UHGV virus genome: UHGV-0384159
Origin: a virus
Length of the DNA stretch: 34,967 nucleotides
Direction: 5' to 3' (one strand)
In this document: positions 5,595 through 25,337 of the stretch, in pieces
Layout of the letters: each line of letters starts with the position of its first letter
Position numbering within the stretch: the first letter of the stretch is position 1
Translations under genes and position numbers: made by a program
Notes under the pieces: model-generated
What the model was told of the DNA's origin: nothing
What the model saw: the letters and a program-made list of their open reading frames with translations, nothing else
Database searches by the model: none

Positions 5595-6110
5595 AGGAAA
5601 AAGAAGCAATCACCTACCGCCAACAAGAAAATAGGACGGCCCAGCCTCTATACGGAGGCATTAGCCGACGAGATAGCCTCCCGTTTAGCCAACGGGGAAA
5701 CGATGAAGTCCATTTGCTCGGACGATCACATGCCGGAGGTTTTAACTGTCTGGAGATGGAGGCACGAACGGGAAGAGTTTTGTAAACTCATTCAACGCGC
5801 GCGGGAAGCGCAGTCAGAAGCCATGCTCGACGAGTGTCAGTCTTTGTCAGATGCCGCTGCCCAGGTTGCCCTCGACCCCGAATGCGGATCCGCCTCCGTC
5901 GCTGCCAAGAAGCTCGCCATTGAAACGCGGCTGAAAGTTGCCGCCCGTTTTGCCCCCGAGAAATTCGGCGACCGAGTCCGGCAGGATGTAGCGGGCGTTC
6001 CCGGCGCTCCATTGGAACGCAAAATCACCCTGGACCCCGAGCAGCTTGCCCAGCTCCGGGAAGACGAGAAAACCGCGCTGGAAACCATTGCCGGCAAACT
6101 CCACCCTTAA
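5595..6110 (+). CDS. terS: terminase small subunit (N-terminal HTH GRPSLYTEALADEIASRLANGETMKSICSDDHMPEVLTVWRW); proposed AGG start
   Basis: The conserved TerS N-terminal HTH lies upstream of the first ATG (5703). The frame is open from 5589 with no ATG/GTG/TTG before 5703; in-frame AGG at 5595. C-terminal ARFAPEKFGDR motif. Confidence 0.55.
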   Translation, partial: RKKKQSPTANKKIGRPSLYTEALADEIASRLANGETMKSICSDDHMPEVLTVWRWRHEREEFCKLIQRAREAQSEAMLDECQSLSDAAAQVALDPECGSASVAAKKLAIETRLKVAARFAPEKFGDRVRQDVAGVPGAPLERKITLDPEQLAQLREDEKTALETIAGKLHP

Positions 6111-6116
6111 TCGAGC

Positions 6117-7490
6117 AGGAACCATCTCCCCGTCAGCTTCTTCCTCCGTCACATTCTCGGACTCGATCCTTATCCCTGGCAAATCGAGGCCATCAAGGCA
6201 TTGCTTCTTGGAAAGGTGAGGCTGGGAGGTCGAAGCGTGGCCATGGTTGCTCCGAACGGATCGGGAAAGACGAGCCTATCCATTGCGCCCGCAATCCTGT
6301 GTTTCCTTACCTATTTTCCTCGGGGTCAGGTGCCAGTCACGTCATCATCATGGATGCAGGTAGAAAAACAGCTCTTTCCCGCGCTTCGCCGCTATATGGA
6401 TAACCCTTTCTTTGACGGCTGGACATTCAACAAAACCGAAATCCGCACGCCGGAAGGAGGATTTGCCGTGGGATTCTCAACCGACAACGCGGGACGCGCA
6501 GAAGGGTGGCATCCGAAAATCTCGCCCGACGTGGATCCCGTCTTTTACGTCCTGGACGAAGCCAAGACCATTCCCGACTCCATCTTCACCGCTGTTTCCC
6601 GCTGCACGCTCTTCAACGCGTTCATCACCTCGTCGCCGGGTGCCGATTCCGGAACCTTTTACGACTGCTTCCACAAAAATTCATCCCTCTACTACAAAAT
6701 CCGCGTTAAATACGAGGATTGCCCGCACATCGAAATCAACGATCCAGGCAAGGCCGAACGCCTGAAAAAAGAATACGGCGAACAGTCCTCCTTCTACCGC
6801 TCGGCCATCCTCGGCGAATTCACGGACCTTGACGGGCAATCCGTCATTTCCCGCCGCGCCATCATGGAGCTGCTCAACAACCCGCCTCCCTTTTTGGACA
6901 CCGGGGAGACCTGCGGCGGCTTTGACTTCGCCGCCGGGGGTGATGAGAATGTCTTCGCGGCCGGACAGGGCAACCGTTTTTTCATCGCCGACCACTGGGC
7001 CGACCCAGACACTGTAGGAGCGCGCGGACGTTTCCGCCGAAAGGCCGCCGAACTCGGCATCTCTGCCGACCGCATCTTTGCCGACGGCGACGGACTGGGG
7101 CTTCCCATCATTGACGACTTCCGGGCTGAGGGTTTCCCCGTGCACTCCTACCGGGGAGGCTTCCCGGCAGATGACACACAAGCCTTTGTCAACCTCCGCG
7201 CCCAAGCATGGCGGGCTCTCGCCCGCGCCATCGAAGAAAAAGAACTCATCCTCGACATTGACGAGGATACGATTGAGCAGCTGGTTGCTCCACGACTCCA
7301 AACCGACGCAATAGGCCGCGTCCGCATTGAAAGCAAAGAAGATATGGCAAAGCGGGGCGTTCGTTCCCCAGACCGGGCCGACGCCCTTGTGATGGCCTGG
7401 CACGCGCGCCGGAACAGCGGACTGGCGCGGACGCTGGGAGCCTGGTACGCCCGTCCCGTGTCATCAAAACGCGCTTACGGGAGATATTAG
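6117..7490 (+). CDS. terL: terminase large subunit (ATPase); proposed AGG start
   Basis: Walker A VAMVAPNGSGKTS. The Q-motif-like LGLDPYPWQIEAI lies upstream of the first canonical start (TTG 6201). Same frame as terS, separated by one TAA; in-frame AGG at 6117. Confidence 0.6.
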   Translation, partial: RNHLPVSFFLRHILGLDPYPWQIEAIKALLLGKVRLGGRSVAMVAPNGSGKTSLSIAPAILCFLTYFPRGQVPVTSSSWMQVEKQLFPALRRYMDNPFFDGWTFNKTEIRTPEGGFAVGFSTDNAGRAEGWHPKISPDVDPVFYVLDEAKTIPDSIFTAVSRCTLFNAFITSSPGADSGTFYDCFHKNSSLYYKIRVKYEDCPHIEINDPGKAERLKKEYGEQSSFYRSAILGEFTDLDGQSVISRRAIMELLNNPPPFLDTGETCGGFDFAAGGDENVFAAGQGNRFFIADHWADPDTVGARGRFRRKAAELGISADRIFADGDGLGLPIIDDFRAEGFPVHSYRGGFPADDTQAFVNLRAQAWRALARAIEEKELILDIDEDTIEQLVAPRLQTDAIGRVRIESKEDMAKRGVRSPDRADALVMAWHARRNSGLARTLGAWYARPVSSKRAYGRY

Positions 7491-7492
7491 GG

Positions 7493-7521
7493 TTGACAAC
7501 ATATCAAGATATCAATATATG
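7493..7521 (+). promoter_or_regulatory. sigma70-like promoter (TTGACA -17- TATATG) upstream of the tRNA
   Basis: Consensus -35 TTGACA at 7493-7498; AT-rich -10 region at 7515-7521; tRNA 5' end at 7538. Confidence 0.4.
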
Positions 7522-7537
7522 ACGATATGTAAGCAAT

Positions 7538-7611
7538 CGCAGGGTGGTGAAACGGTATCACGCGGGGTTCCTGTCCCCGAATCGAAGGTCCAACTCCTTC
7601 CCCTGCAACCA
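7538..7611 (+). tRNA. initiator-like tRNA with anticodon CCU (Arg-type anticodon), CCA encoded
   Basis: Manual cloverleaf: acceptor CGCAGGG/CCCTGCA with C1xA72 mismatch, U8, D-stem GTGA/TCAC with loop AACGGTA, anticodon stem CGGGG/CCCCG with loop TTCCTGT (anticodon 7570-7572), variable loop AATC, T-stem GAAGG/CCTTC with loop TCCAACT, discriminator A, CCA 7609-7611. Confidence 0.7.
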
Positions 7612-7627
7612 CCTTTTCTTTAGCCTC

Positions 7628-8992
7628 AGGTTTAACGCCGTCAAAAATATCCTCAACGCCCCGAAGCTGGTAGCCCAACAGGAGACCAGAATCAAGGAGC
7701 TTGAAACGGACCTGGCCCGGCGAGCGTTGACGGAACAGAGCCGGAAGCCTAACCAGCCTCAATGGTACGAATATTGGGACCCGTTACAGGGCGCCGACCT
7801 GCAAACCCTGATTGACGCCCGGAACGAAGCGCGGCGTGGAGCCTTTGCCCGCCAAATGCTCATTTGGGACGAGGTCATCTACTCGGACGGCTTGATGGGC
7901 ATGCTCTATTCCCGGCTCATTGAAAGCGTCTCCATGCAGGGATGGAAGATTGACGCCGCGGACGACAGCCCGGAAGCCCAGCGTCAGCAGAACGCGCTGG
8001 AAGAATTCTATCACTCCGTCACCGGACTTCAACAGGCCTTTGGGCAGTTGGCCTCCGCTATGTTTTACGGGTACGCCCACCTCCAATACATCGAAGATTC
8101 CTGGGGCCGCCGCTTTGAATTCATCCCGCAGCGATACTGGGTGCGGCCCGGAGAGCTGAACGAATGGCAGTTTAATCCCCAGTGCTACATCGGGGTCGAC
8201 ACGGGCGAGAGCGTAGAGGAAGAAACGCTCGTGGTCATGGAGCACCGGAACCCCATTCTTTTTCCGGCAACCCGCGCCTCTTTTGAGCGGAATCACGCCA
8301 AAGTTACGTGGGACAACCATATGGACCGCTACGGGAGCGCCCCGGTCATCATCACGGCGCCCAAGGACGCGAGCGCCGCCGTCATGGACGCGCTGGAACG
8401 GGCCTGTGAGGAACTCAAATCGGGAGCCTCCATTGTGCTTCCTCCCGGCTGCACCGCCGAACCGTTGAAAGCCTCCAACATCAACGAAAACTATTTCCTA
8501 TCCCGAATCAACATGTCCGACAAGGACCAGGTGCGGTTTGTAATGGCCGGCACTCTGACCGTCCTGAATGAATCAGGATCCGGCACGCTGGCCGGGGGAG
8601 CGCACACGGACAGCTGGAATTCGGTCGTCTCCGCGGTCTGTTCCAAGGTCGCCGAAGCTTTTAACGCCGCCATCAGCCCGCTTGTCCTGGGAGACGGCGA
8701 ACCGCTGGCCCGCCTCCACATCACTTTTGACACCGTCCAGACCCCGCTGCAGAAAGCCGAGGAAATCGCCGCGCTTGCCGACGGAGGCGTCCGCCCCGAG
8801 AAGACCGAGATTGAAGAAAAGATCGGCATGTCGATCGAGGACACGCAGGACCCCGTTCCGGTGACGGCGGCGGCCAACAGGGAACCGGAAAAAGCACTCA
8901 TTCCGCCCGATGCTTATGAACAGCTTCAGCAAATGATTTACGCCGGACTCATGAAAGGATTTACCGATGATCAGCACGAAACAAATCAATGA
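7628..8992 (+). CDS. portal protein; proposed AGG start 17 nt after the tRNA
   Basis: Large ORF between terminase and protease. The track's GTG 7544 start would read through the tRNA gene. First in-frame AGG after the tRNA is at 7628; next canonical starts are TTG 7727 or ATG 7853. Confidence 0.5.
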   Translation, partial: RFNAVKNILNAPKLVAQQETRIKELETDLARRALTEQSRKPNQPQWYEYWDPLQGADLQTLIDARNEARRGAFARQMLIWDEVIYSDGLMGMLYSRLIESVSMQGWKIDAADDSPEAQRQQNALEEFYHSVTGLQQAFGQLASAMFYGYAHLQYIEDSWGRRFEFIPQRYWVRPGELNEWQFNPQCYIGVDTGESVEEETLVVMEHRNPILFPATRASFERNHAKVTWDNHMDRYGSAPVIITAPKDASAAVMDALERACEELKSGASIVLPPGCTAEPLKASNINENYFLSRINMSDKDQVRFVMAGTLTVLNESGSGTLAGGAHTDSWNSVVSAVCSKVAEAFNAAISPLVLGDGEPLARLHITFDTVQTPLQKAEEIAALADGGVRPEKTEIEEKIGMSIEDTQDPVPVTAAANREPEKALIPPDAYEQLQQMIYAGLMKGFTDDQHETNQ

Positions 8993-10079
8993 CCTGTCCC
9001 GACCCGCCAACGGCTGGTTCCACGTTGAGAAAAGCGGAGACCATGACGTTGACTACGGCGAGGGTCCCGCCGTGTTGCGCATCGACGAGCAGGCGATCCG
9101 GGACATGGTGGACGACTTCAACGCCCGCACCTTTGACGGCCCGGGCATGCTCATCGACGGCGACCACCTGAGCCACGACCTTTCCCGCGATACTCGGGCC
9201 CTCGGATGGCTCAAGAGGCTGGACACCTACCGCGACCCTTCCGGCACGCTGGAACTCTACGGGTTCATCGAATGGACGCCGCGCGGCCTGAAGATGCTGC
9301 AGGACAAGGAATACACGCAATCATCCACCGAATATGGCGAAGGCATGACTTTGACGGACGGCGTCTACCGCCCGTCGCGTCTGACCGGCTTCGCTCTGAC
9401 CAACCGGCCGCGCATCAAGGGAAAGCGGCCTCTGGTCAACCGACAGACTTCCCCCGCCTCCGACGAGGCCGGGGGCGACCCCAAAAGCCCCGAAGAGGGG
9501 GAAACAACCCAGAAAACCAATATGGAAAACGACGATAGAGAATATCCGTCCAAGGAGATGGACAAGGCCCAGCGGGCCCTGTTCGACTCCCTGCTTGACA
9601 AGCTGGATGTCGAATTTGACGGCACCGACGACATGAGCAGGGCGATCCTCGGACGCCTTGATGAACTGCTCTCGCTGGAAAAGCGTGAGAAAGACCACGT
9701 GAACGCCGAAGTGGACGACGCCGTCAGCACGTACGAAAACGCGCTGGACGAGGAAGAACGCGAGGAATTCACGGAAGAACGCCGGGAAGAGCTGAAAAAC
9801 TCTCTCCGGGAAAGCCCCGCCGCGCTGAACGCTTTTATCCGTGCGCTCAACCGCCAGACTCCGCCCAAAAAACCGGATCAGGAGGAAAAGAAGGAACTGC
9901 CGAAAAGGACGCCTCTGAACCGCCGCGCGACGCTGAATCCCCCTGACCCATTCCGCAAGAAGGAATCCATTGACGGATTCAACAACCGCGTCAACGAACT
10001 GATCAAGGACGGCATGAAGCGCTATGACGCCTACCAGAAAGCGACCGAAGAAGGCTTCATCGTCTCCGCCAACCGATAA
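8967..10079 (+). CDS. Mu I-like head maturation protease fused to an acidic scaffold-like C-terminal region
   Basis: ALGWLKRL…GTLELYGFIEWTPRG…GFALTNRPRI resembles Mu-like prophage protease I; the C-terminal half is D/E/K/R-rich and coiled-coil-like. Confidence 0.5.
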   Translation: MISTKQINDLSRPANGWFHVEKSGDHDVDYGEGPAVLRIDEQAIRDMVDDFNARTFDGPGMLIDGDHLSHDLSRDTRALGWLKRLDTYRDPSGTLELYGFIEWTPRGLKMLQDKEYTQSSTEYGEGMTLTDGVYRPSRLTGFALTNRPRIKGKRPLVNRQTSPASDEAGGDPKSPEEGETTQKTNMENDDREYPSKEMDKAQRALFDSLLDKLDVEFDGTDDMSRAILGRLDELLSLEKREKDHVNAEVDDAVSTYENALDEEEREEFTEERREELKNSLRESPAALNAFIRALNRQTPPKKPDQEEKKELPKRTPLNRRATLNPPDPFRKKESIDGFNNRVNELIKDGMKRYDAYQKATEEGFIVSANR

Positions 10080-10097
10080 CTTAACCCATATCAACCA

Positions 10098-10529
10098 ATG
10101 CCATCACTCAACGTAACCCAGAAAAACGCCATCGTCTATTTCAACGCCCCTGAAGGCGTTGACCTGTGCGGACAGGAAGGAACCGTCGTGGCGCTGACCG
10201 CCAATCCTGACATCCCCGAATTTGTCGGAACTCCGTTGTCCGCCATCCCCACGCAGACGCAGCTGCTCGGCGTCGTCCTGCAGGGACAGCCCAACAAGGG
10301 AACCTGCGTCGCCGCGCTCGTCGGAATGTATGCCGGCCTGATCAAGGCGGCTCTATCCGACACGCCCGGAACCATCAACGCCGGAACGCCCGTCACCATC
10401 ACGGCCAACGGGACATGGAAGGCCGCCGCCAGCGGCGACACCGTCTATGCCCGCGTTATTCATGCCCAGTGGGAACAGGGCCTTGTGGAAATCGGCTTCG
10501 TTCCGTCCTACCAGGTCGCCGCAGCCTAA
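10098..10529 (+). CDS. head decoration-like protein (DUF2190-like)
   Basis: 143-aa Gly/Ala/Val-rich ORF immediately upstream of the major capsid gene. Confidence 0.4.
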   Translation: MPSLNVTQKNAIVYFNAPEGVDLCGQEGTVVALTANPDIPEFVGTPLSAIPTQTQLLGVVLQGQPNKGTCVAALVGMYAGLIKAALSDTPGTINAGTPVTITANGTWKAAASGDTVYARVIHAQWEQGLVEIGFVPSYQVAAA

Positions 10530-10563
10530 CTATTAACCCCAACCAACAGAAAGACCAAGAACA

Positions 10564-11490
10564 AGGGCTACTCCATTTTGCTCCGCCGTTCAGTTCACCG
10601 ATGTCCTGACCTCCTATTCCGCGGGGTCCGGGAACACCGAAGAGAACTCCATCATCAGCCGCATCGCTCCGATCGTCCCGGTCTATGACCTGAATTTCCA
10701 GTACAAGGTCTGGGACACGGAATCGGCCTTCACCGTCCAGCCCATCCAGGTGGGACCGGGCGAACCTCCCCGCCAGACCGTCCTGCGCGGAAGAAACGAA
10801 ACCGACACCCTTCAGGGCTACGGCTTGACGCTGCCCATCCCTGACGCCTTGCTGGGCGTCAACCGGGAAAAGGCGCAGGCCATCACCCTGGCGGAATACA
10901 AACTCATCGAATCCCAGTTTGTGACGTCGTACGAATACGAACGCGCCAAGCTTCTGATGAGCCAGCTTCCGGCCGCTTCCGGGATGGGTGACTGGGCCAA
11001 CCAGCAGAAAAACCCGTTGGCGGATCTGGACCAGGCGATCCTGTCCATCAACGCCGCAACCGGACACATGCCGAACACGATTGTCTTCGGCATCAACGCA
11101 TGGCAGCTGCTTCGCTCCAACACGCTCGCGCGTCAGGTGGTTTCCTTCAACAGCGTCGGCCTGTTCAACGAAGACCTTCTTCGCATGGCTCTGATCCGGC
11201 CCATCCGGGATATTTACATCGCCTCCATGCCGTACCGCGACGCTTCCGGCGACGCGAAAACCATCATGGAAAACGAAGTCTATGTCCTGTACAAGGAAGA
11301 CTCCCCGACGCAGTTCGACGCCTCCGCCGTCAAGACCTTCGGTCTTTCCGGCAAGCTTCGCCGAGAAGTCATCACTGAATACAAGCCGACGCCGGCCTTG
11401 ACGCTCGTCACAAACCGCGTCTACTCGCTGACCAAGTTGACGAACCCCAGCGCCATCGTCCGCATCGACGCGACGGCCACCGGCGATTAA
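10564..11490 (+). CDS. major capsid protein (lambda gpE-like family); proposed AGG start
   Basis: TIVFGINAWQLLRSNTLARQVV resembles IIVFDPKGWALFRS of lambda E. Conserved N-terminal region (ISRIAPIVPVY…) lies upstream of the first canonical start (GTG 10750). Frame open from 10537; in-frame AGG 10564. Confidence 0.55.
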   Translation, partial: RATPFCSAVQFTDVLTSYSAGSGNTEENSIISRIAPIVPVYDLNFQYKVWDTESAFTVQPIQVGPGEPPRQTVLRGRNETDTLQGYGLTLPIPDALLGVNREKAQAITLAEYKLIESQFVTSYEYERAKLLMSQLPAASGMGDWANQQKNPLADLDQAILSINAATGHMPNTIVFGINAWQLLRSNTLARQVVSFNSVGLFNEDLLRMALIRPIRDIYIASMPYRDASGDAKTIMENEVYVLYKEDSPTQFDASAVKTFGLSGKLRREVITEYKPTPALTLVTNRVYSLTKLTNPSAIVRIDATATGD

Positions 11491-11509
11491 CCCCAACCCC
11501 GCCTCCATC

Positions 11510-11986
11510 ATGTCCGCCTTTCCTGCCTGGTCCACGATTTCCACCGACGAAGCCGATCGGCTGCTCGGTCTCAACACCGCCGAACGCGATGCCCTGGTAA
11601 CAGCCGGGGAACAGCGCAGCCTGGACTACCGGGATGTCATGATGGAGGCGGTCAACGATGTCTGCATGACCATCCGCGGGGCGCTGGCCAACAACCTCGC
11701 CCTGCGGCAATCGCTCCAGAACAGCGGCATGTACGACATTCCGCAAAGCATGCGGTCCCTGGCATGGCCGCTGATCATCCGGCAGCTCTACCTGCGCTAC
11801 CAGCTCAACCTGACCGAGACGCGCCAGAAGGCCGCCGAATCGGCGGACGCGATGCTGGCGCTCTACGCCAAAGGGGACATGCTGCCGGAAAGCGTGGACG
11901 GCTCCGCGCCCGCGGATCCCGCCTACATGATGCCGCGCTACACGCGCCGCCCCTGGTTCAACCCCATGCGAAGCACCTACCGATGA
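11510..11986 (+). CDS. hypothetical structural protein (head-tail connector region)
   Basis: ORF; stop overlaps the next ATG (ATGATGA). Confidence 0.4.
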   Translation: MSAFPAWSTISTDEADRLLGLNTAERDALVTAGEQRSLDYRDVMMEAVNDVCMTIRGALANNLALRQSLQNSGMYDIPQSMRSLAWPLIIRQLYLRYQLNLTETRQKAAESADAMLALYAKGDMLPESVDGSAPADPAYMMPRYTRRPWFNPMRSTYR

Positions 11987-13119
11987 TGACCGCCGCCCAG
12001 ATGGAGATGATCGCCAACGACTACGCCGAACGCGCCTTTTTCGTGTCCGGCGTGGAGCCCGGCGTTATCCTGTCCGACTTTGAGGAAAAGGCGGGGAAGG
12101 TCGCCTCCGGCGCCCTGAGCTATGAAGAGGCGCAGCAGTCCATCCGCGAAACCCTGCGCCAGCAGGGCTACCGACCGCCGGCAACGGGGCAGGGCGGCAT
12201 TCAGGATTTGTCATCCTGGCTCCGCATCCAGGTCGTCATGGAAACCAATGCGGCCATGGCGCACGGTTACCGGAACTGGTATAACTGGATGCAGGACGAA
12301 GACACGGCCGCCTTCAAATTTTACCGCTCCCAGGGGCGGGAAGACCCGCGCTATTGGGCCGAACGCTGGAACCGTGCCCGGGCCGGGCTGGAAGAAGAAG
12401 CCACGGAAGCGGTATCATCCGGCTTCATCCGCGGGGAAATCGTCGGCTATGCGCTGGCGGCCTCCGATATCTGGATCCGCCTTTCGCGCTTTGGCACGCC
12501 TTACCCGCCCTTTGACTACCTGTCCGGCATGAACATTGCCCCCGTGGGCGCCGAAGAAGCCCGCGCGGCCGGGCTGGCCGTGTCGCGCGTCCGTCCCGCT
12601 CCCCCCAGCTTCAACGCAACCTTGGAAAGCAACGCCAAAGGCGTGACGGAATCCAACAGGAACAAGATCCGCCGCATCCTGAAAGACGCCGTGCGCGTCA
12701 AGACCGGGAACGACGGCAATACCACCTTTGCCTACACGGACCCGAACGGCACGCGCCCTTACACGGACGCGGAACTGGCGGACGTCCTGTCCGGGGATTT
12801 CCCGGAAGAGATCCCCTTGCGCCAGGCCCAGGCCTTCAGCCTGGCGGCAGCCGGGGGAGCCGTGGCCGGAACGCTGGCGGCCCTCTACCTGGACCGTCTG
12901 CTGGACCGTCTGGCTTCCGAGCCGGAAGGTGATTGGTACGCCCGGCCCGCAGACGTGGCCGCCGCGTCCTCCCGCCAGTATATCCCCGTTTCCCCAAAGG
13001 AAGAGGGGGAATTCACCTATCCCATTACCTCCGGGCACGTCAGGAAAGTGGAAGACGTCGCCGGAGCCCTCAATGTGGAACTGTCAACCCCTTACGTTTT
13101 ACCCGTCAAATGGCTGTAA
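11983..13119 (+). CDS. hypothetical structural/morphogenesis protein
   Basis: ATG 11983 coupled to the upstream stop; 378 aa. Confidence 0.4.
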   Translation: MMTAAQMEMIANDYAERAFFVSGVEPGVILSDFEEKAGKVASGALSYEEAQQSIRETLRQQGYRPPATGQGGIQDLSSWLRIQVVMETNAAMAHGYRNWYNWMQDEDTAAFKFYRSQGREDPRYWAERWNRARAGLEEEATEAVSSGFIRGEIVGYALAASDIWIRLSRFGTPYPPFDYLSGMNIAPVGAEEARAAGLAVSRVRPAPPSFNATLESNAKGVTESNRNKIRRILKDAVRVKTGNDGNTTFAYTDPNGTRPYTDAELADVLSGDFPEEIPLRQAQAFSLAAAGGAVAGTLAALYLDRLLDRLASEPEGDWYARPADVAAASSRQYIPVSPKEEGEFTYPITSGHVRKVEDVAGALNVELSTPYVLPVKWL

Positions 13120-14685: not shown

Positions 14686-15336
14686 AGGGCAACTACATAC
14701 GATCCCACATTCACGAACCGCAACGTCACGCCGCAGATTACCGGCGTTCTGGCTATTTTCCTCCCCGACGGCATCAAGGTGACCGAAGACGAGGGAGCTT
14801 CTTACGTCACCGGGCCGGACCAGTTTCCGACGCCTCCGACGTCTCCGCCAACGGATCCGACCGCCGGGCCTGAACAGCCCTGGGTGAGCTTCGGGCTGCT
14901 GGGAGCGTTCCAGTCCGTCGCCACCCAGGTCGAAGGGGAAGTGACGCGCTTTTACGGCGGTGCGCTGGGATATCGCCAGCAGCGCAAGAACACCACGACC
15001 GGCAAGCGGATGACCTTCACCACGCCGGACATGTCCCCCGAATGGTTCCAGCTTTCTTTCGCCTTGGGAGCGCCTCCCGCCAACGGCGAGGAATCGACCA
15101 CCGTCGGACATGGCGGCGACAATAAGATTGAGGGGTATCTTCACTTCTGGTATCAGAACGACGTGGGTACTATCTATCTGGTCGGAACGGCGCATGGCGC
15201 CTTGCGCCTCCTGCAGGATCCCGAACACACCACGGCGATTGCTTCACCCCAGTTCGAGTTCGAAATGGATTATCGCGGCAAGTACCAGTTCACGCCCTCC
15301 AATGTGCAGGACGTGACGCCGGCGCCGGGTTCCTGA
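14686..15336 (+). CDS. tail structural protein; proposed AGG start (MATTYDPTF…)
   Basis: Frame open upstream of GTG 14779 with protein-like sequence; in-frame AGG 14686; followed by a terminator. Confidence 0.4.
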   Translation, partial: RATTYDPTFTNRNVTPQITGVLAIFLPDGIKVTEDEGASYVTGPDQFPTPPTSPPTDPTAGPEQPWVSFGLLGAFQSVATQVEGEVTRFYGGALGYRQQRKNTTTGKRMTFTTPDMSPEWFQLSFALGAPPANGEESTTVGHGGDNKIEGYLHFWYQNDVGTIYLVGTAHGALRLLQDPEHTTAIASPQFEFEMDYRGKYQFTPSNVQDVTPAPGS

Positions 15337-15384: not shown

Positions 15385-17505
15385 AGGCAGCAGGCAGGCA
15401 AATACGATATCCGGACCGTCACGGGGCTGAACCAGTCGCTGGTCGTCCGTGTGGTAGATTTTCAGGGGGATCCCGTCGACATGAGCGGCGTCACCCTCCG
15501 CGGCGCTGTCCGTCTCAAGACAGGCGTCGCCGAGTTCGGCTTTTCCCGCGACGATGAGGGTAACGGCGTGCTTTCCTGGGCTTCGGTGCCTGCGGGCAGG
15601 TGGTCCTACGACGTCTTCATGGACGACGGAAACGAGGAAAGACCGCTGCTCTACGGATGCTTTGTTTCTGCGGGCCGTGTAACGCCTGACTTGCCGGACG
15701 AACAGCAGGCCGTGGCGGGCGCGGTCGTCGTGCAGCTGCCGGAAGGAAGCGGATGCGTGCAGGTGGTGCTTGATAATGCGTCAAGCGCCGCCTGGTACGC
15801 GGAGCAGGCCAAGAAGTACGCCGAGAATTTCAATCTTTCGGTGGACCGGGTCACTACCGGCGAGCCTGGCACTCCTGCCGCAGCGGAAGCCGTGAAAGGC
15901 TCGGAAGCGGGCTCTTATCTGTTGTCGTTTACCATCCCCAAAGGAGACGCCGGTCCCGAAGGCCCACCAGGCCCGCAGGGGGAACCGGGCGAAACCGGCC
16001 CCGAAGGCCCTCAGGGTCCCAGGGGCGACGCAGGACCTCAAGGTCCTCAGGGAGCGACCGGAGAACAGGGACCAAGAGGCGACATTGGAGAAACCGGACC
16101 GCAGGGTCCTGCCGGCCCGCAAGGCCCCGAGGGGCCGGAGGGTCCCCAAGGACCCCGTGGCGAGAAAGGAGATACCGGGGATGTTAATCCGGACGGGTCT
16201 TATAACTGGACGCAGCCGCAGACCTACGACGCCACGATCACCGCAATCGAAGGAGTCCGTGTGCCGCTGCCCGCCACAGGGCAGAATGCCATTTCCTATG
16301 AGGGAATGATAACCATGACGGCTGCCGGCCAATGGAGCCGCACCAACTATTTTCTGGAATCCGTCATTCCGTCATGGGTGACCGCCTTGGTGGAAGCCCA
16401 GTCGTTGAACACAAGCTACGCAATTGCTACCGCTAACGCCTCCCTGAAGAAGGGAGTATTTAATAACGACTTGTGCGATATGGTATTAACCATGACGGCG
16501 GCCGGGGGTGTTTCTGTTATCGGCAAATCCACGGGATCATGGAAATTTGCCAATTACATGGGCAACAATAGAAATAACGAATATGCTGCCGCTTGCGCCT
16601 GGCGGATACTTGGCTCCGACAAGGTGTCGGTTCTCTTGGGCAGCACTGCCCAGGGGTACGCTACGACTGTCGATCCGCTGGCGTCCTGCTATTCACATCC
16701 TGTGCACTGGGTGGATTATGCCTGGGATAATGCAAATTACAGGTATCCGCAAAACAATACAGTCAATGGAGCGAGAGGGGGCGACAATGTGCCGGCGTAT
16801 CAGATCACTACCTACCCTATGGGGTATCTGGGGAGCAATAAGTCGGCCTTGATAAGGGGGACGTTTTACGGACCCCTCAAGGTAGATTCCCATTATGTTT
16901 GGGCATTGGCTCCGGCTTTTACCTACGTCTCCGCGGCCATGACGCCACCCAACCCCGATGACCAGGAGATTTACAATCGCTGGGCTTTGTTTGTGGACAA
17001 GCAATATGTAATGGATATGGCTTCCTCCTTTTGGGGCGCCGGCAACACAGCATGCCTTACAACCAAATTCAAGGCGCACGAAGTCAGCGGGACTTATCAG
17101 GCGGGCCTCCGGATGGGAGGAATGAGGATAGACAATGCACCCTCACTGGGCATAACCAACTCCTGGGTCCTCATGAAGGACACGGTAATGGAGGGCGTGA
17201 CACCTAAACCAGTTCCAGAAGTAACGGCTTCTGCTCAGGAAGTTCCGGCCTCTGGCGGCGAGGTGACATTGACGGCGTCTTCCACCCTCTCCGAGGCTAT
17301 CTATGTGCTGAACGATACCATGTGCGGACATGACCCCGCCGCTGTGTGGTGCACGCAATCCTCTGAAGAAATAGGGTCCGGCGGCGGCCAGGTTGTCCTG
17401 ACGCTGGCGGCAAACACGACTGGACAACCGCGGCAGGTGTGGGCGTTTGTCGGCCACCATTACGCCGAGGCCGCCGTTGTAGAAATCAACCAATTAGCGC
17501 AATAA
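15385..17505 (+). CDS. collagen-like (Gly-X-Y repeat) tail fibre protein; proposed AGG start
   Basis: About 77 uninterrupted GXY triplets ([34 protein letters not shown]…) followed by a roughly 430-aa C-terminal globular domain. Frame open from 15337; in-frame AGG 15385; GTG 15451 and ATG 15481 are alternatives. Confidence 0.6.
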
Positions 17506-17509
17506 CACC

Positions 17510-18372: not shown

Positions 18373-18374
18373 CC

Positions 18375-18692: not shown

Positions 18693-19223
18693 AGGAAAAT
18701 AGCCATTGATATAGGCCATGCCAACAACACCGGAGCCCGTGGAAACAGGCTTGAAGAACACGCCGTAGCAGCGACGATTACGGAACGCCTCGCGCCTATG
18801 CTCAGAAAGCTGGGCGCCCAGGTGGACGTAATTGACTTTCCGGCCCAGAGCAACACGGACGACCTGAACGCCACCATCAAGGCCGCCAACGAAGGCGGCT
18901 ACGACTTCGGGATTTCCCTGCATTGTGACTCATCGGATAATGTGCAAGCTCACGGCGCCCATGTGTGCTTCTATCCCGGGAGCGTTAAGGGAAGCCGGCT
19001 TGCCATGTGCATCGCGGAACCTCTTGCCCGGCTGCTCCCAGGACGGGACTGCACGGTGTTGGCCCGTCCGGGGCTGGCCGTCCTGAAAAGGACGCGCTGC
19101 CCGTGGGTGCTGTGCGAATGCGGCTTTATCACCAATCCTGAAAATGCCGCCCTTATGAAGGACCATCCCGAAGCCATTGCGGAAGCCATTGCGGAAGGAG
19201 TGAAGGCCTATTCCAAGCTGTAG
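18693..19223 (+). CDS. N-acetylmuramoyl-L-alanine amidase (Amidase_3 family); proposed AGG start giving MKIAIDIGH…
   Basis: SD AAAGGAG at 18679-18685, 7-nt spacer, in-frame AGG 18693. The canonical N-terminus KIAIDIGHANNTGARG follows directly. First canonical start (ATG 18798) would remove the catalytic N-terminal motif. Confidence 0.6.
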   Translation, partial: RKIAIDIGHANNTGARGNRLEEHAVAATITERLAPMLRKLGAQVDVIDFPAQSNTDDLNATIKAANEGGYDFGISLHCDSSDNVQAHGAHVCFYPGSVKGSRLAMCIAEPLARLLPGRDCTVLARPGLAVLKRTRCPWVLCECGFITNPENAALMKDHPEAIAEAIAEGVKAYSKL

Positions 19224-19229
19224 ACGATC

Positions 19230-20453
19230 ATGATCTACGAGGCCCCATACTCCGCATGGTACGTTTCCGGAGCCGGAAACACGCTCCAACTCCTCAACCT
19301 CTGGGATGCCACGCCGGAGCCTCCCCGGTTCGGCGGAGACATAGAAGTCTTTGAAACGTCCCTGGTGGACGGCACGAGGGCTTTTGCGGAAGGATTGGGG
19401 TCTGCCGTAGAACACCGCACCTTTGCCTTTTACCGCTGGTTTAAGGACTACGAAGAAATGGCCAGGTATCAGGAAAACCTGGCTGTCTGGATGGCAACCA
19501 ACCAGAACGGCACTCTGTACATGCAGTTTGCCGACCAGCCTCAATGGAGATTCACGTCCGTCCTTGCCGGCTACCAATTTGAAACGGAGAACTTCATTCC
19601 TCCTCCGTCGCCGGAAGACGGTTATTTGTGCCTGCTGGTATCCATCAACATGACGCTCACGGACCGGGTTCCCGACAATTCAGCCTGGGTGTTCTCCGTG
19701 ACTCCTTCCTCGGTTTCCGTCCCGGCTGCCGGCGGACAATATGCGTTCTCCGTCGTCTCCTACTTCAACCCGGGCGAAATCGGGCAGGGCTGGAAAGCCT
19801 TTGAGAACGACGGCATCTCCATCTCCAACATCATCAACGGCAACAATGGCTCCTTCCGGGTTACAGTGCCTCCCAACGAAACTACGGAAGAAAAAAGCAT
19901 TTATCTGACAGTTTCCCAGGACGGAACCGGAATCGCTCCTCTCATTGAGATCACCCAGGCGGCAGCCACGCCCCAGGAGAAAACGGTGGGCTCTCCCGTC
20001 TTCCTGGAAGGGGATCCTGCCAAGATTGCCGCCTTGGGAACATTTAACTGGCGGCAATACCGGATGAAGTGGGGAGAACAGGTAGACGGTGATCCGCCGC
20101 CGGCAGCCTCCATCAAATCCGTCACCGTGGCCCGCGGGAGCGCCAACAACATCAGCGCTGCCCTTTCGCTGTACGTCCTCAATGAGGATGGGTCCACCAC
20201 AACGCTGCTGGCTACCAGCAACGCCGCGGTTAATGACGCCGCCAGCCAGCAGGCGACATTCACCTTCCCGGCGCCGCCCAAGGTGGAAGCCGGGATGCAG
20301 CTCATCTTCCAGCCCGGCGCCGTCGTATACACCAAAATTGAGAATATCACGGCCTACGATTGGGGCGGCATTGCCTATCGGCCTTATCCGGCCGCAATCA
20401 CCACGCCTGCCGTGATGCCGGCCATGTCGCTGGACGTCGAATACATCGGATAA
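19230..20453 (+). CDS. major tail protein with C-terminal Ig-like domain
   Basis: Sits just before the chaperone and tape measure. C-terminal half resembles Big/Ig-like (SVSVPAAGGQYAFSVVSY…VTVPPNETTEEKSIYLTVSQDG). Confidence 0.45.
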   Translation: MIYEAPYSAWYVSGAGNTLQLLNLWDATPEPPRFGGDIEVFETSLVDGTRAFAEGLGSAVEHRTFAFYRWFKDYEEMARYQENLAVWMATNQNGTLYMQFADQPQWRFTSVLAGYQFETENFIPPPSPEDGYLCLLVSINMTLTDRVPDNSAWVFSVTPSSVSVPAAGGQYAFSVVSYFNPGEIGQGWKAFENDGISISNIINGNNGSFRVTVPPNETTEEKSIYLTVSQDGTGIAPLIEITQAAATPQEKTVGSPVFLEGDPAKIAALGTFNWRQYRMKWGEQVDGDPPPAASIKSVTVARGSANNISAALSLYVLNEDGSTTTLLATSNAAVNDAASQQATFTFPAPPKVEAGMQLIFQPGAVVYTKIENITAYDWGGIAYRPYPAAITTPAVMPAMSLDVEYIG

Positions 20454-20480
20454 CAACACCTTTTCAACATACCACCAATC

Positions 20481-20789: not shown

Positions 20790-22640
20790 ATGGCTACCAA
20801 GAAAGAAATCGAAATCAAGCTCAAGTCCACGCTGGACGGAAAAGGCGTAGAAGAAGCAAAGCAGAAGATTGACTCCCTGAATAAATCCACAGACCAGCTC
20901 GACAAAGGCAGTCAAAAGGCGACCAAGAGCATCAAGAACATGGGGAAGGGCACCTTACAGGCGGCCTACTTCTTCGATGACCTGCAATACGGCATCAAGG
21001 GCATCCTGAACAATATTCCGGGCCTTGTAATAGGCTTCGGCGGCGGGGCGGGCCTAGCCGGCGCTCTCTCCCTCGCCACGCTTGCAGGCGCGAAGCTCTA
21101 CGAGTGGCTTTCCTCGACGGAAGAGAAGTCAGTTGATTTGACTAAAAAACTTGAAGAAGAAAGAGAGGCTTTCAAAAAGTTAAAAGAAGAAGTTGGTGAA
21201 ATTTCTCGGCAAAACAACAATGAACAAATATTACGGGCGGCAATAGATAGTGCAAAAAAAATAGCTGATTATCGTAAAGAAGAAGCTAACGCATTAAAAT
21301 ATTCTTTGGATTATCGTAAAGAGTTGATTGCTTTAGAATCTGGAATTAATGACGATGAAGCAGAGATCGCCCGCCTAAAAGTAGAGGAAGATTTTGCTAA
21401 TGGGAAATTAGGTGAAGGCGCCGAGGCTGAGCGTCGAAGAGCTCGCTTGTTAGAAGGCATCGAATTAGATAGCCGCGCAAGAAGGAGAAATGAAAGAGAA
21501 GAATCAGCAAAATTAGATGTGTCCGACGCAGTCAATAAGAGAATTGATGCAGCTCGTACCGCAAGAGAAGCTCAAGAGTCACTCCAAAATGCAAAATCTA
21601 ATTCTTACGATATCATGTCTCTTGAAGAAAGAAGGGCGTCAGAAGTTTCTTTAAGTGAAATGAGAAAATCTTTAATAAATGATTTATATGGAGCTTTAAA
21701 ATCGTATAGAGATAAAGAAAGAGATTCCGGAGCCTTACGATATAGGAATGTAAGTGATAAATCTATTTATGATACAGCTAATGAGTTTGTAAATGGAGAA
21801 GAAATTTCAAATAAATTGGTGTATGCATTGCTCGATAAATACCGACCTAGCGACGCAGAATCTAGAAGAGCAAAAATATTTGATATTCAAGGAAACATAG
21901 AGAGAAGTGACATTTCTCTTCAGGATAAAGGTTTTAATTTGGGTGATATGACTTTTGGAGATGGAGGTTATTTGAATGCCTATAAATCTTATGCTGAAAC
22001 CGTAGAAACTCTTGAAAAAGAATATGAAGAATCGGAAAAGTCTTTAATATCAGCAAAGAATGATGAAGAAATAGCAACGCGAAAGCTATCTGATGTAAAG
22101 AGAAAAAACGCCTCGGAAGCCGCTGTTGATATACAACGCGGTAGGACGTCTCAAGCTCAGGAGAGAAGGCAAATCCGTGAAGAAACAGAAAAAGAGGATA
22201 CCGAGAATGAAATCGAAGGCAGAAAAAAAGAAATAGAAACCAAAAAAGATGCTCTGAAGAAGAATAAGGATAATTTTTCTGCTGAACTGGAGCGTTTAGT
22301 TGTTGCTGCAGGGGAGTCTGCCAGTGAGCAACAGAAAGCGATGGTTAGAGCCGCTTCGGAGGCTATTCGGAATCAGGTTAAAAACGCCTCGGCAGATGGA
22401 ATAATTGACTCAGCAGAATATACACAAATAGGAGTTGCCTTTAGAGATGCTTTGAGGCAGCAAGGAATTCAAAACACCTCAATTCTGAATGGACTTACCA
22501 CAAATATGAAACAAGCTCTTTCCCTTGTTAATCAACAAGCGGCAGAATTAAGAGTTCAGCAGGCACGAATCGATCAGTTAACTCGAGAGCTAAAACAAGC
22601 TCAAAATAATATTGGAGGATTACGGCGCAGAAAACATTGA
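20790..22640 (+). CDS. tape-measure-like protein; the C-terminal roughly 500 aa are encoded by AT-rich DNA
   Basis: Glycine-rich hydrophobic N-terminal segment (GLVIGFGGGAGLAGALSLATLAGA) followed by a long K/E-rich predicted coiled coil. Nucleotide composition drops abruptly at about 21120. Confidence 0.45.
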   Translation: MATKKEIEIKLKSTLDGKGVEEAKQKIDSLNKSTDQLDKGSQKATKSIKNMGKGTLQAAYFFDDLQYGIKGILNNIPGLVIGFGGGAGLAGALSLATLAGAKLYEWLSSTEEKSVDLTKKLEEEREAFKKLKEEVGEISRQNNNEQILRAAIDSAKKIADYRKEEANALKYSLDYRKELIALESGINDDEAEIARLKVEEDFANGKLGEGAEAERRRARLLEGIELDSRARRRNEREESAKLDVSDAVNKRIDAARTAREAQESLQNAKSNSYDIMSLEERRASEVSLSEMRKSLINDLYGALKSYRDKERDSGALRYRNVSDKSIYDTANEFVNGEEISNKLVYALLDKYRPSDAESRRAKIFDIQGNIERSDISLQDKGFNLGDMTFGDGGYLNAYKSYAETVETLEKEYEESEKSLISAKNDEEIATRKLSDVKRKNASEAAVDIQRGRTSQAQERRQIREETEKEDTENEIEGRKKEIETKKDALKKNKDNFSAELERLVVAAGESASEQQKAMVRAASEAIRNQVKNASADGIIDSAEYTQIGVAFRDALRQQGIQNTSILNGLTTNMKQALSLVNQQAAELRVQQARIDQLTRELKQAQNNIGGLRRRKH

Positions 22641-22652
22641 AGAAAAATTATC

Positions 22653-23057
22653 ATGATGTATGATGTTGCCATGAAATATTTCTACTTCTGCGGGAATGTT
22701 GTCAAAGGCCCCATATCATTCAGGCAACTACAAATTTTAATTAAAAATCATGTCATAGGACCTGAAACATTAATTTGCGCAGAAGGAACAAATAAATGGT
22801 TCAAGGCTGATGAATTACTAAGGGAAAGCAATAAAACAACTTATTCTACTAAGAAACTTCCAAATCGCAAAGAAAGTAATTCTTTTCTTTCCACAGTCCT
22901 TATATTTCTCGCAACCCTATCGATAGGAGGGGGCTTCATTATGGGGATTGTAAGTTTTGAAGCAGGGTTAATTGGTATTGGAATGGGTTATATTCTGGGA
23001 GGTGCCGTAGTGGCTGTACTTTGGTACACGCTGTATATTTTACTTGCCAAAAAATAA
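22653..23057 (+). CDS. membrane protein with N-terminal DUF4339/GYF-like domain and two C-terminal TM helices
   Basis: YFYFCGNVVKGPISFRQLQILIKNHVIGPETLICAEGTNKWFKADEL motif; TM segments at the C-terminus; AT-rich. Confidence 0.45.
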   Translation: MMYDVAMKYFYFCGNVVKGPISFRQLQILIKNHVIGPETLICAEGTNKWFKADELLRESNKTTYSTKKLPNRKESNSFLSTVLIFLATLSIGGGFIMGIVSFEAGLIGIGMGYILGGAVVAVLWYTLYILLAKK

Positions 23058-23159
23058 ATAAAGCCGGGAAAAGAGATTGTCAAAGACAAGCAAAAAAAAC
23101 AGTAGCCTGAAACACAGACAGAAGAATATTGTCAACAACCAACCAAATTCTCAAGCAGC

Positions 23160-25337
23160 AGGAACCATAACATTACCATAGATGACTTGCTGGCTCTCAA
23201 GCCATCAAGCCTCACGCACGATCAACAGAGCTTCTCCACGTCCACCATTACGGCAGTTTACCCCGTCAGGACGCTTGGGGAAACTTTGCCGTACAAGCAA
23301 TTCGATACCGTCACCATCTCCCAAAACGGACAAGTCATCCTAGTGGGGCTGGTGTCCAATATTGAAAAAGTATACAGCGGCAGCCAGCGGTCCTGGAGGA
23401 TTGTTTTTTCCGACCCCTGGTATTACCTCGCTAATTGCTATGCCTTGGAAAATGGATGGCAGCCGACGTTCGGGCTTTTCCCCCGTAAAGGCGTAGAGGG
23501 TATTATTCCCAAGGTCAACCTGAGCGGCGCTTTGTCCAGCGTGCTTGACATGGCAAAGCACCACCCAGCCAGCTATGAGCTGCGCATCAGAGACGACAAG
23601 CAGCTGATACCGTGGAATGCATCCTGCGACACTCTTCAAAGTCTGCTGCAGTCCATCCGGCGCTGGTCTCCGCGTATGGTCAGTTATTATGACTATACGG
23701 GAGAGAAACCGAAACTCATCATTACGGACTACGATTCTCTCGACCCTATTTCCCTGCCGCTGCAACCCTCCGCCACAGTCAAAAGCATAGACGTATCACT
23801 GTCACCGCGAGGCGACCTTGTTCCCCCCTGTGTTGCGATTGTGGCAGAATCTACCGGCAGTTCAGGCTATCGCGTCTCCTACCTTTCCAAGTACCCGTCG
23901 GACGGCGACCCTACGCTGCCGCATTCGATCGTCTATCGCGTCTCCTCTGACTTTTATTTCTCCAATTACAATGAGTCAGGCGGTTCCGCTTCCGAACCCC
24001 AGCCCGTAAAGACTTCCAGATCCGGCAGCTTGGCTTATCAGAAGATGATTGTCAAAGGGCGCCGCATTGACGCTGCGGACATGATCAACAGCTTTTGGGC
24101 ACACCATTTCCCGTGGATGAAAGACATCCCGGCAGGGCAGCTTGTGACCTATTCCGACCGGGTCGTCACTCCCAAGGCATGGGAAGGCACGGAAGAGGAA
24201 AAACCCAAGGGGTACGACACCACGGCAACCGCATACGAACTTACAGACGGGCAGATTCACACAAAATCCCTGCGCCCTAAATGGTGCAATACCACCATCA
24301 AGCAGCGTCTAGCCATTCCGGAAAATGCCCCGGCCAAGTGGAGAGAAAAATTTAAGAACATCGGAGTAATTGGAGGAGGAGACACGCCTTGTTTCTGGCA
24401 GGAATTTTCCGTGGACCTGGTGACACTCGACCGCCCCAATGCTACCTATCCGATTGACGGCATTTATAACGGCGAACAGCCGTCAAACGATGAAGACGGA
24501 CCCTCTACCGGACCCAATGACGGAATACCTTATGCCGACATAGCAAGAACGGTGTGGGAATCCATGCAGGAACTTCCCTATGACGGGTCTATCTCCTTTG
24601 CGGCTCGCGGGGGGGCTCAATACTGGCAATACATGGGGCGCCGTGTTTCCTTGCTTGGCGGCAATCCGGAATGGGAAACTATCAATACCATGGTGCAGAC
24701 CGTAAGCCGTGACTTGCAGACCAACGTTATTGAACTTTCCTACGGCTCTCCGTCTCAACTTGGAATCGAAGATTTACTTGAGCTTAATGAAGTGAATGTT
24801 ATTTCAGATGCCTCTTCCGCGTTGGAAAACATGCAGGGAGCGCCGGAACCAATTGACCTGACCTACGACCCCAAGCCGGAATCTCCGACCATTGGACAAC
24901 AGATTACGACCGCCACCGGGTCTGAAGCTCCTGCGCCGGAATACGGCTTCCAGGTGCGCCTGACCAAGGACACAGAAGGAAACATCACCGATGCTCGCAT
25001 CAAACCCGGCGCTCTCTACCTCAACGGCTCTCTCTTGGGATTCTACCCGACCGGAGACGGCGGCTCCGGCTCCTCCTGGGTGAAACTCCCGATGACCAGC
25101 GGGGAGGTCTGGATAAATGTCCACTTCGACCAGGACGCCAAGTTAACCAGCGCGGAAATGTCAGGCATACCGGGAACGGTGTACCCGATCATGCTCGCCC
25201 AGGAAAAACCCGGCGTCAACTTTGACTATGCTTTTCAGGTTGCCGACATCAACGAAGACCAGGTCACGCAATACGCCCTGGGCATGATCCAGATCCCGGT
25301 CTTCGGAGGCACCTTCTACCCCTACGGACCAGCTTAA
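23160..25337 (+). CDS. large distal tail / host-interaction protein; possible AGG start (track start TTG 23187)
   Basis: 716-aa-plus ORF after the tape-measure-like gene. Frame open from 23106; in-frame AGG 23160 sits in the context GCAGGAACCAT, identical to the terL AGG context. Confidence 0.4.
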   Translation, partial: RNHNITIDDLLALKPSSLTHDQQSFSTSTITAVYPVRTLGETLPYKQFDTVTISQNGQVILVGLVSNIEKVYSGSQRSWRIVFSDPWYYLANCYALENGWQPTFGLFPRKGVEGIIPKVNLSGALSSVLDMAKHHPASYELRIRDDKQLIPWNASCDTLQSLLQSIRRWSPRMVSYYDYTGEKPKLIITDYDSLDPISLPLQPSATVKSIDVSLSPRGDLVPPCVAIVAESTGSSGYRVSYLSKYPSDGDPTLPHSIVYRVSSDFYFSNYNESGGSASEPQPVKTSRSGSLAYQKMIVKGRRIDAADMINSFWAHHFPWMKDIPAGQLVTYSDRVVTPKAWEGTEEEKPKGYDTTATAYELTDGQIHTKSLRPKWCNTTIKQRLAIPENAPAKWREKFKNIGVIGGGDTPCFWQEFSVDLVTLDRPNATYPIDGIYNGEQPSNDEDGPSTGPNDGIPYADIARTVWESMQELPYDGSISFAARGGAQYWQYMGRRVSLLGGNPEWETINTMVQTVSRDLQTNVIELSYGSPSQLGIEDLLELNEVNVISDASSALENMQGAPEPIDLTYDPKPESPTIGQQITTATGSEAPAPEYGFQVRLTKDTEGNITDARIKPGALYLNGSLLGFYPTGDGGSGSSWVKLPMTSGEVWINVHFDQDAKLTSAEMSGIPGTVYPIMLAQEKPGVNFDYAFQVADINEDQVTQYALGMIQIPVFGGTFYPYGPA

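Follow-up and report, generated by a model that had tools for sequence, protein, structure and literature searches.

How do genes begin whose conserved N-terminal sequence lies upstream of every canonical start codon in their reading frame? The question is raised by eight late genes of UHGV virus genome UHGV-0384159, a stretch of 34,967 nucleotides (nt) analysed as a whole and hereafter called the window, which represents a temperate Akkermansia phage. Bacteria and their viruses are taken to start translation at AUG, or at near-cognates thereof, by means of one initiator transfer RNA (tRNA) with the anticodon CAU. In each of the eight genes an in-frame AGG stands where the protein should begin, and between two of them, terL and the portal gene, lies a phage tRNA with the anticodon CCU. 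Judged from comparative sequence analysis, AGG very probably acts here as a start codon read by this phage tRNA(CCU). A preliminary description of the window had proposed such a reading, and it is supported by the interchange of AGG and ATG among relatives, the invariance of the start AGGs compared with internal ones, the initiator hallmarks of the tRNA, and a related clade that lacks the tRNA.

The AGG start sites and their counterparts in relatives

The sites were checked by a stop-to-stop scan of open reading frames (ORFs) and by direct reading of the sequence, and comprise the following genes, with protein lengths in amino acids (aa):

5595..6110, + strand: terS, Sf6-type small terminase subunit, start AGG 5595
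6117..7490, + strand: terL, large terminase subunit (phrog_2), start AGG 6117, two codons past the terS stop
7628..8992, + strand: portal, Mu type (Portal_Mu), start AGG 7628, 17 nt 3' of the tRNA
10564..11490, + strand: major capsid protein (MCP), start AGG 10564
14686..15336, + strand: 216-aa tail-region protein, start AGG 14686
15385..17505, + strand: collagen-repeat tail fibre, with collagen and tail-fibre family matches, start AGG 15385
18693..19223, + strand: amidase (N-acetylmuramoyl-L-alanine amidase, endolysin), start AGG 18693, with AAGGAG at 18680-18685
23160..25337, + strand: 725-aa late protein, start AGG 23160

All eight AGG coordinates given earlier are correct, each codon being in frame with its ORF, and the gene at 23160, initially listed as a possible eighth, belongs to the group, the Met of its homologue P0093 falling exactly on the AGG codon. 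In these long ORFs the first ATG, GTG or TTG comes only 9-62 codons past the AGG, namely 36 codons in terS (ATG 5703), 28 in terL (TTG 6201), 62 in the MCP gene (GTG 10750), 31 in the tail-region gene (GTG 14779), 22 in the fibre gene (GTG 15451), 35 in the amidase gene (ATG 18798), and 9 in the gene of the 725-aa protein (TTG 23187). The lone in-frame GTG upstream of the portal start (7544) falls within the tRNA gene.

Alignment of homologues maps the N-termini to the AGG codons, well 5' of the first ATG, GTG or TTG, as the preliminary description had anticipated. In terS, counting from AGG 5595, the match to the Sf6_terminase profile sets in at residue 19, whereas ATG 5703 is residue 37, and homologues begin just ahead of the GRPSLY motif. 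In the MCP, residue 13 aligns with position 14 of the phrog_1005 profile, and the homologues P0001 (82% identical), P0006 (67%), and P0048 (57%) display Met in the exact column of AGG 10564, the N-termini at this column reading MPNNFCTAVQFTDV, MANLFYSAVQFTDV, and (AGG)ATPFCSAVQFTDV. In the amidase, positions 1-173 of the Amidase_3 profile correspond to residues 3-171 from AGG 18693, a match that has the IDIGH motif at its beginning. Judged from these alignments, the stretches between AGG and the first canonical start are real coding sequence, and canonical starts would truncate the proteins. Gene callers systematically misannotate the group: the MCP is called with 246 or 278 aa, not 308 (proteins P0002, P0015, and P0033), and the source annotation of the terS orthologue P0050 (contigs L155/L156, 10001) starts at an ATA 8 codons past the AGG.

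Chance as the source of this pattern is excluded. AGG accounts for 65 of the 9639 in-frame codons of the phage genes (0.67%) and for 0.5% of those in late genes, and in the MCP and tail-region ORFs the putative start is the sole in-frame AGG. The probability of meeting AGG at six exactly aligned orthologous start positions is p ~1e-13, and that of an in-frame AGG at all eight sites, were it part of a frame-independent motif, is p = (1/3)^8.

C precedes the AGG at seven of the eight sites, so that this observation of the preliminary description stands as a count, but not as a feature specific to AGG, C also preceding 10 of 17 ATG starts of the late region. The heptamer GCAGGAA does recur at three sites (terS, terL, and the 725-aa gene), and the amidase does have a spaced Shine-Dalgarno (SD) sequence, AAGGAG, 7 nt 5' of the AGG. 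At most AGG and ATG starts of the window phage an SD is absent, and most AGG genes follow intergenic gaps, not overlaps. Starts elsewhere are normal, as had been noted: the other 16 late genes use ATG, many with ATGA overlaps, and the early genes use ATG or GTG. AGG 26235 was considered as the start of the integrase gene and rejected, since the match to the integrase profile sets in only downstream of it, in agreement with ATG 26331 as the start. Late mRNAs show no depletion of the AGG trinucleotide of the kind that would avoid spurious starts (observed/expected 1.07).

Two further observations concern the fibre gene. At its codon 72 (15598-15600) the window has AGG, and relatives have ATG in 16 cases, AGG in 8, and GCC in 3; an internal start of a shorter isoform was considered here, and because of the GCC variants the codon is probably an ordinary polymorphism. 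Between the tail-region and fibre genes stands a G+C-rich hairpin (15349-15367, GGGGGCGCGCTGCGCCCCC), followed by a T-run (15376-15381) that ends 3 nt 5' of the fibre AGG, an arrangement conserved in relatives. The element at 15349-15381 looks like a terminator; a terminator scan did not call it, the T-run starting 8 nt past the stem.

The relatives of the phage comprise prophages in Akkermansia chromosomes and Akkermansia phage DTMo-2021a (CP084202; host A. muciniphila NBRC 114322), which is 84% identical to the window over positions 5500-12000. In the IMG/VR database tRNA(CCU) lies between terL and the portal gene in 28 of 29 contigs, the remaining one, L024, stopping short of the site, and AGG occupies the start of terS in 27/27, terL in 29/29, portal in 29/29, MCP in 30/30, tail-region protein in 23/23, and fibre in 22/22 sequences (counts including L001, an 84%-identical phage). 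A further 50 closely related metagenome contigs have AGG at all covered sites of the same six genes, and 47 of them carry the tRNA; L190 and L199 stop short of its site, and L212 has only the tRNA 3' end, with an inserted element there. The tRNA and the AGG starts also occur together in CP084202, in the A. muciniphila chromosome CP048438, and in other Akkermansia assemblies.

Across more than 80 independent tRNA-carrying contigs the start AGGs change to nothing but ATG. The amidase illustrates the exchange best, with AGG in 9 and ATG in 5 near-identical genomes, and a ratio of 19 to 6 among further contigs, the flanking codons being preserved (CTC ATG AAA ATA GCC in L001 versus CCC AGG AAA ATA GCC in the window). 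The reverse is seen in the homologue of window gene 20790, which starts with AGG in contig L159 and with ATG in the window. In the wider set of relatives, terL has AGG in 35 of 38, with ATG at the same codon in L157, one codon downstream in L034, and two codons upstream in L031; the portal has AGG in 35 of 37, the two others being L031 and L032, which lack the tRNA and have TTG; and the tail-region protein has AGG in 26 of 30, with ATG in L031 and L032 and AGG one codon upstream in L155 and L156. The fibre AGG is present in 27/27 tRNA-bearing relatives, and that of terS also in distant tRNA-bearing clades. L035, L155, and L156 have AGG at six genes, and L034, distant and tRNA-bearing, is a mosaic with AGG at terS, portal, tail-region protein, and fibre and with ATG at the MCP. 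The 725-aa gene has AGG in L001 as well.

This constancy belongs to the start position and not to AGG codons in general. Compared with L001, internal in-frame AGGs are kept in 7 of 30 cases, versus 7 of 8 start AGGs, the eighth being ATG; the genes that start with ATG in the window keep ATG in up to 39/39 relatives. The bases just 5' of the AGGs are highly diverse, with 11 distinct contexts in terL alone.

A clade of four contigs (L031, L032, L033, and L166) carries no tRNA in the covered DNA, the terL-portal spacer included. Its G+C content is lower (42-44%), and its MCP (P0001, from L031-L033) is the homologue 82% identical to that of the window. The portal has TTG at the codon aligned with AGG 7628 (L031 and L032), and the MCP, tail-region protein, fibre, and amidase have ATG at the aligned codon. 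In L031 the tail-region gene reads ATG GCA ACT ACT, versus AGG GCA ACT ACA in the window, and the fibre ATG aligns with the window AGG at equal spacing to the YNIKTLTGL motif. The 725-aa homologue P0093, from L166, an L031-like contig, reads MTHDITINDLLALK versus (AGG)NHNITIDDLLALK in the window, and starts M-THDITINDLLALK precisely at codon 23160. A canonical codon thus occupies the exact AGG position in six genes and lies two codons off in terL, where an ATG stands upstream of the AGG position, for a coverage that runs from terL on. Every called gene of the clade starts with ATG or TTG, and none with AGG. Among the genomes compared, AGG starts are found only in those that carry the tRNA, and there the codon appears to act as a start interchangeable with ATG.

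The tRNA(CCU) and the reading of AGG

The tRNA gene is described as follows:

7538..7611, + strand: initiator-type tRNA with anticodon CCU (ARAGORN, tRNA-Arg; Rfam tRNA, 52.7 bits)

Bacterial initiator tRNAs lack a Watson-Crick pair at position 1:72 and display three G:C pairs in the anticodon stem, the anticodon CAU, and A11:U24. In E. coli tRNA-fMet the C1×A72 mismatch is an anti-determinant for elongation, a Watson-Crick 1:72 pair being needed for use by EF-Tu. The body of tRNA(CCU) comprises the C1×A72 mismatch, G2:C71, C3:G70, A73, an anticodon stem CGGGG/CCCCG with loop UUCCUGU, and an encoded CCA, the latter being usual in bacterial initiator genes (PMC5143459). In 18 distinct variants all 20 stem pairs are paired without exception, with compensatory changes at 9 of them, and position 1:72 is always C×A, never a pair, so that the Watson-Crick pair expected of an elongator tRNA-Arg is not found; the remaining six pairs of the acceptor stem are preserved, with compensatory changes at two. 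The formylation determinants are preserved, with C3:G70 and A73 invariant and G2:C71 replaced by G:U in two variants. Three consecutive G:C pairs (29-31:39-41) occur in the window and most variants, the exceptions being A29:U41 in the L009 and L023 types and U31:G39 in the L012 and L018 types. All copies have the anticodon CCU, departing from the initiator hallmark CAU.

Phage initiator tRNAs with anticodon CAU (in L075, L085, and others) share with tRNA(CCU) the D-arm and the ends CGCAGG...CTGCAACCA, which suggests, as the simplest origin, a change of the anticodon CAU of a phage initiator into CCU. A scan of 185,579 species-representative genomes found the tRNA family in one Akkermansia metagenome-assembled genome only, so that it is not a core host gene. 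A search of IMG/VR for E. coli-type initiator anticodon arms with C-B-T anticodons returned only elongator tRNA-Lys and non-tRNA sequences.

The loops depart from common tRNA patterns. U, as pseudouridine, is nearly universal at position 55. The T-loop (7589-7595) reads UCCAACU, with C55, in most copies and UUCAACU in a few variants, and the second G of the D-loop GG (7551-7557) varies to U, A, or C in single contigs; the usual contacts between D-loop and T-loop seem relaxed. Pairing of G37 with the C at -1, as a fourth base pair, was considered, in view of the A37:U-1 pairing in E. coli (PMC10018350); it is only suggestive, given the frequency of C-1 at late ATG starts and the L018-type tRNA, in which A37 goes with an unchanged C-1.

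Four other explanations of the AGG codons were weighed, all of which we consider improbable. The one that fares best, at a small residual probability, holds that assorted near-cognate starts (ATA, ATT, CTG, or AGG itself) are read by the host tRNA(CAU) and that the CCU tRNA is an ordinary elongator for rare arginine codons. AGG is one base from AUG, ARAGORN labels the tRNA as Arg, an ATT lies ahead of LGLDPYPWQ in terL, and just ahead of GRPSLY in terS lies the ATA from which P0050 was annotated. However, no alternative codon is common to the eight genes or conserved, the terS ATA being CCG in L001, and only AGG is invariant, exactly where relatives have ATG or TTG. Little elongator demand would arise from a codon at 0.5% of late-gene codons, and the C1×A72 anti-determinant is kept while every other stem pair co-varies; in addition, the clade without the tRNA has no AGG starts.

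Less probable still is initiation without a start codon, by termination-reinitiation or 70S scanning from the upstream gene, with AGG incidental to it. The terL AGG lies 6 nt past the terS stop, and several AGG genes stand close behind the preceding gene, as such coupling would have it, but reinitiation also requires a codon read by an initiator tRNA, and the portal, fibre, amidase, and 725-aa genes follow gaps (the tRNA gene, the hairpin, or a spacer of 67-103 nt). The invariance of AGG and the features of the tRNA would be left unexplained.

Even less can be said for AGG as part of an upstream signal, either an SD-like AGGA or a transcription or processing motif, with translation beginning downstream. 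GCAGGAA at three sites resembles an SD core, and a true AAGGAG stands near the amidase. Yet the AGG is in frame in 8/8 genes, relatives have ATG or TTG at that very codon, no start codon follows at SD spacing in a host that is SD-scarce, and the stretch from AGG to the first canonical start shows conservation at the protein level and belongs to domains. Sequencing or assembly error, or decay of a defective prophage that lost its late-gene starts, can be practically dismissed. Truncation by gene callers (MCP of 246 or 278 aa) does look like damage, but identical AGGs recur across independent assemblies, more than 80 in number and produced by different studies, among them isolate chromosomes and a deposited phage genome. 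The ORFs are intact, with protein-level conservation across clades 57-82% identical, and errors turning T into G would not be confined to eight start codons.

Initiation at AGG by tRNA(CCU) is the reading favoured here. What the comparison of genomes establishes, at the level of sequence, comprises (i) the start positions, (ii) the equivalence of AGG and ATG, (iii) the co-occurrence with the tRNA, and (iv) selection on initiator features. The mechanism that we propose is that the phage encodes a second, private initiator, with an initiator-type body and CCU in place of CAU, which would pair with AGG in the ribosomal P site and so allow the eight late genes to start at AGG. Such a mechanism is made plausible by an engineered E. 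coli initiator tRNA with the anticodon CCU, which drives initiation at AGG. With the initiator tRNA(CAU) of the host, reading of AGG should be very poor, and the eight genes would then be translated efficiently only with the phage tRNA present; the remaining late genes and all early genes would stay on ATG or GTG. Akkermansia is reported to be SD-scarce (PMC10783764). In such a host the choice of start should rest mainly on codon-anticodon pairing, and a missing SD at the AGGs would be normal.

Among 37 phage proteins scanned with Pfam and PHROGs no aminoacyl-tRNA synthetase or formyltransferase was detected, so that host enzymes must charge, and presumably formylate, the tRNA. Charging would fall to a host synthetase, most likely arginyl-tRNA synthetase (ArgRS), which is favoured by the arginine identity elements C35 and U36 and by the loss of CAU, the identity element of methionyl-tRNA synthetase (MetRS); formylation would be performed by the host enzyme. 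The first residue is most likely (formyl-)Arg rather than Met, a conclusion held with moderate confidence. Met as the first residue, as implied by N-termini written 'M...', is an assumption, Arg being at least as likely.

As to purpose, for which the preliminary description had raised timing or licensing as a possibility, our best guess is an AND-gate by which the lysogen would be kept from leaky production of the terminase, virion, and lysis proteins; alternatively, the system may avoid competition for the host initiator.

Several observations weigh against this mechanism or leave it incomplete. The terS and terL genes lie 5' of the tRNA and of the promoter-like element next to it, so that the logic of a late operon that switches itself on is not complete. 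The co-variation of tRNA and AGG relies on one tRNA-less clade, with a lower-G+C host and coverage from terL on. In the tRNA itself, U11:A24, a pair also present in the phage CAU initiators that share the D-arm, invariably replaces the initiator-typical A11:U24; the anticodon loop is unusual (U32, G37, and U38), as is C55 in the T-loop; and in the L009 and L023 variants one of the three G:C pairs is lost. ArgRS may also charge the tRNA inefficiently, since the D-loop AACGGUA places U, not A, at position 20, by identity rules established in E. coli rather than in Akkermansia.

Genome context and a satellite-like element

Directly 5' of the tRNA lies the following element:

7493..7530, + strand: promoter-like TTGACA (7493-7498), followed by an imperfect inverted repeat (7499-7512 / 7517-7530)

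TTGACA is kept in all tRNA-bearing clades shown, as TTTACA in L034, and a consensus sigma-70 scan upstream of the tRNA called no promoter. The element could represent either a pre-tRNA leader or a promoter combined with an operator. A similar TTGACA element occurs in the terL-portal spacer of L031, which has no tRNA, so that it may instead be the promoter of the portal operon.

Some prophages contain an integrative element of ~12.9 kb inside the tRNA(CCU) gene:

L158 ~8480-20459 plus L212 1-7040, with the same element in L159: integrative element, corresponding to window site 7611/7612, between tRNA and portal

The insertion leaves a full tRNA copy on the terL side and only the tRNA 3' end (TTCCCCTGCAACCA) beside the portal gene. 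The cargo comprises an integrase, an Sf6-type terS of its own, a pRha protein, a primase-like protein, and an ERCC4 nuclease, as well as a second, diverged tRNA(CCU) with its own upstream TTGACA and at least one AGG-start gene. The element looks like a satellite that shares the private start codon.

The overall layout of the window, in order, is as follows:

early genes: Bro/ANT antirepressor, RecT, YqaJ, RuvC, Dam methylase, IstB-like ATPase
then: terS, terL, the single tRNA, portal, Mu-type protease/scaffold, major capsid
after the capsid gene: head and tail genes, collagen fibre, amidase, more late genes, tyrosine integrase

No internal stop occurs in any of the 40 genes under table 11, and the sole tRNA of the window is that with anticodon CCU. 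Within the late region, 20790-23057 is a low-G+C island (39% versus ~57% in the flanks) that encodes 616-aa and 134-aa genes with no Pfam or PHROG match; the island was probably acquired by horizontal transfer, as a module. The satellite-like element contains a homologue of the 616-aa gene. On the minus strand, 3003-4307 comprises a 434-aa gene with a G+C content of 39% and several weak helix-turn-helix and sigma-70 region 4-like matches, found as a 535-aa version in relatives; its product may regulate the late genes or the promoter of the tRNA. The gene of the IstB-like ATPase starts with ATG at 2152 in the window, and the aligned codon is ATA in 8 of 16 relatives (e.g., L156 and L019), reflecting either a near-cognate start or a true start elsewhere, in both cases unrelated to AGG.

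Comparison with known systems

Compared with canonical or phage CAU initiators, tRNA(CCU) shares C1×A72, G2:C71, C3:G70, a G:C-rich anticodon stem, A73, and CCA. It differs from the canonical initiator in CCU instead of CAU, the loop UUCCUGU instead of CUCAUAA, and U11:A24 instead of A:U, departures that make it an unlikely substrate of MetRS. Natural non-AUG starts comprise GUG, UUG, AUU (in infC), and AUA/AUU (in mitochondria), all read by a single CAU initiator through near-cognate pairing, whereas AGG represents a second-position change that would be matched by a dedicated initiator with a fully complementary anticodon. A full-text literature search, of incomplete coverage and thus amounting to absence of evidence, found no natural dedicated non-CAU initiator with matching start codons. 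If the reading holds, the existence in nature of a second initiator, with a wholly different start codon of its own, would constitute a new type of genetic-code variation, with a bearing on the question of whether first residues other than Met can occur naturally in bacterial proteins.

The closest precedents are engineered. In E. coli, the i-tRNA(CCU)/AGG pair gave the highest expression of 12 orthogonal pairs across strains and the top fold-change in 5 of the 6 strains described, from 35- to 402-fold (bioRxiv 10.64898/2026.04.16.719103). Such engineered initiators, derived from metY with a mutated anticodon, resemble the phage pair in combining an initiator body, a non-CAU anticodon, and a matching start on chosen genes. 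The engineered pair is man-made and its tRNA supplied by the host, whereas the phage pair is natural, carried by the phage within the late cluster, and selected across many lineages; its tRNA body differs from that of E. coli tRNA-fMet in U11:A24 and the loop UUCCUGU. The phage locus nonetheless displays what characterizes an orthogonal initiator/start pair, namely an initiator body, a non-CAU anticodon, and the complementary start on a subset of genes. For synthetic biology it may offer a naturally optimised pair with the same CCU/AGG combination as the best performer in E. coli. In amber-initiator phage biocontainment, essential phage genes likewise depend on a special initiator tRNA (bioRxiv 10.1101/2024.07.29.605542).

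Gut phages that recode stop codons with suppressor tRNAs also alter codon reading through a phage tRNA; the codons concerned cluster in late, structural, and lysis genes, a distribution suggesting that the lytic programme is gated at the level of translation (bioRxiv 10.1101/2021.08.26.457843). Stop-codon recoding acts on in-frame stops during elongation, whereas the present system would act at initiation on the sense codon AGG, with no in-frame stops. It would thus be the start-codon counterpart of phage stop-codon recoding and a tractable system for how phages gate late-gene translation, and it explains why, in a group of Akkermansia prophages common in the human gut, calls of the terminase, portal, capsid, and lysin genes are systematically truncated or missed.

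Taken together, the phage family and its apparent satellite represent, with good probability, a natural virus-encoded form of orthogonal initiation, comprising a second initiator tRNA(CCU), AGG starts, a probable (formyl-)Arg, and gating by the tRNA. We rate the AGG/tRNA(CCU) pair as categorically new for natural systems, with a mechanism that has its precedent in engineered ones.

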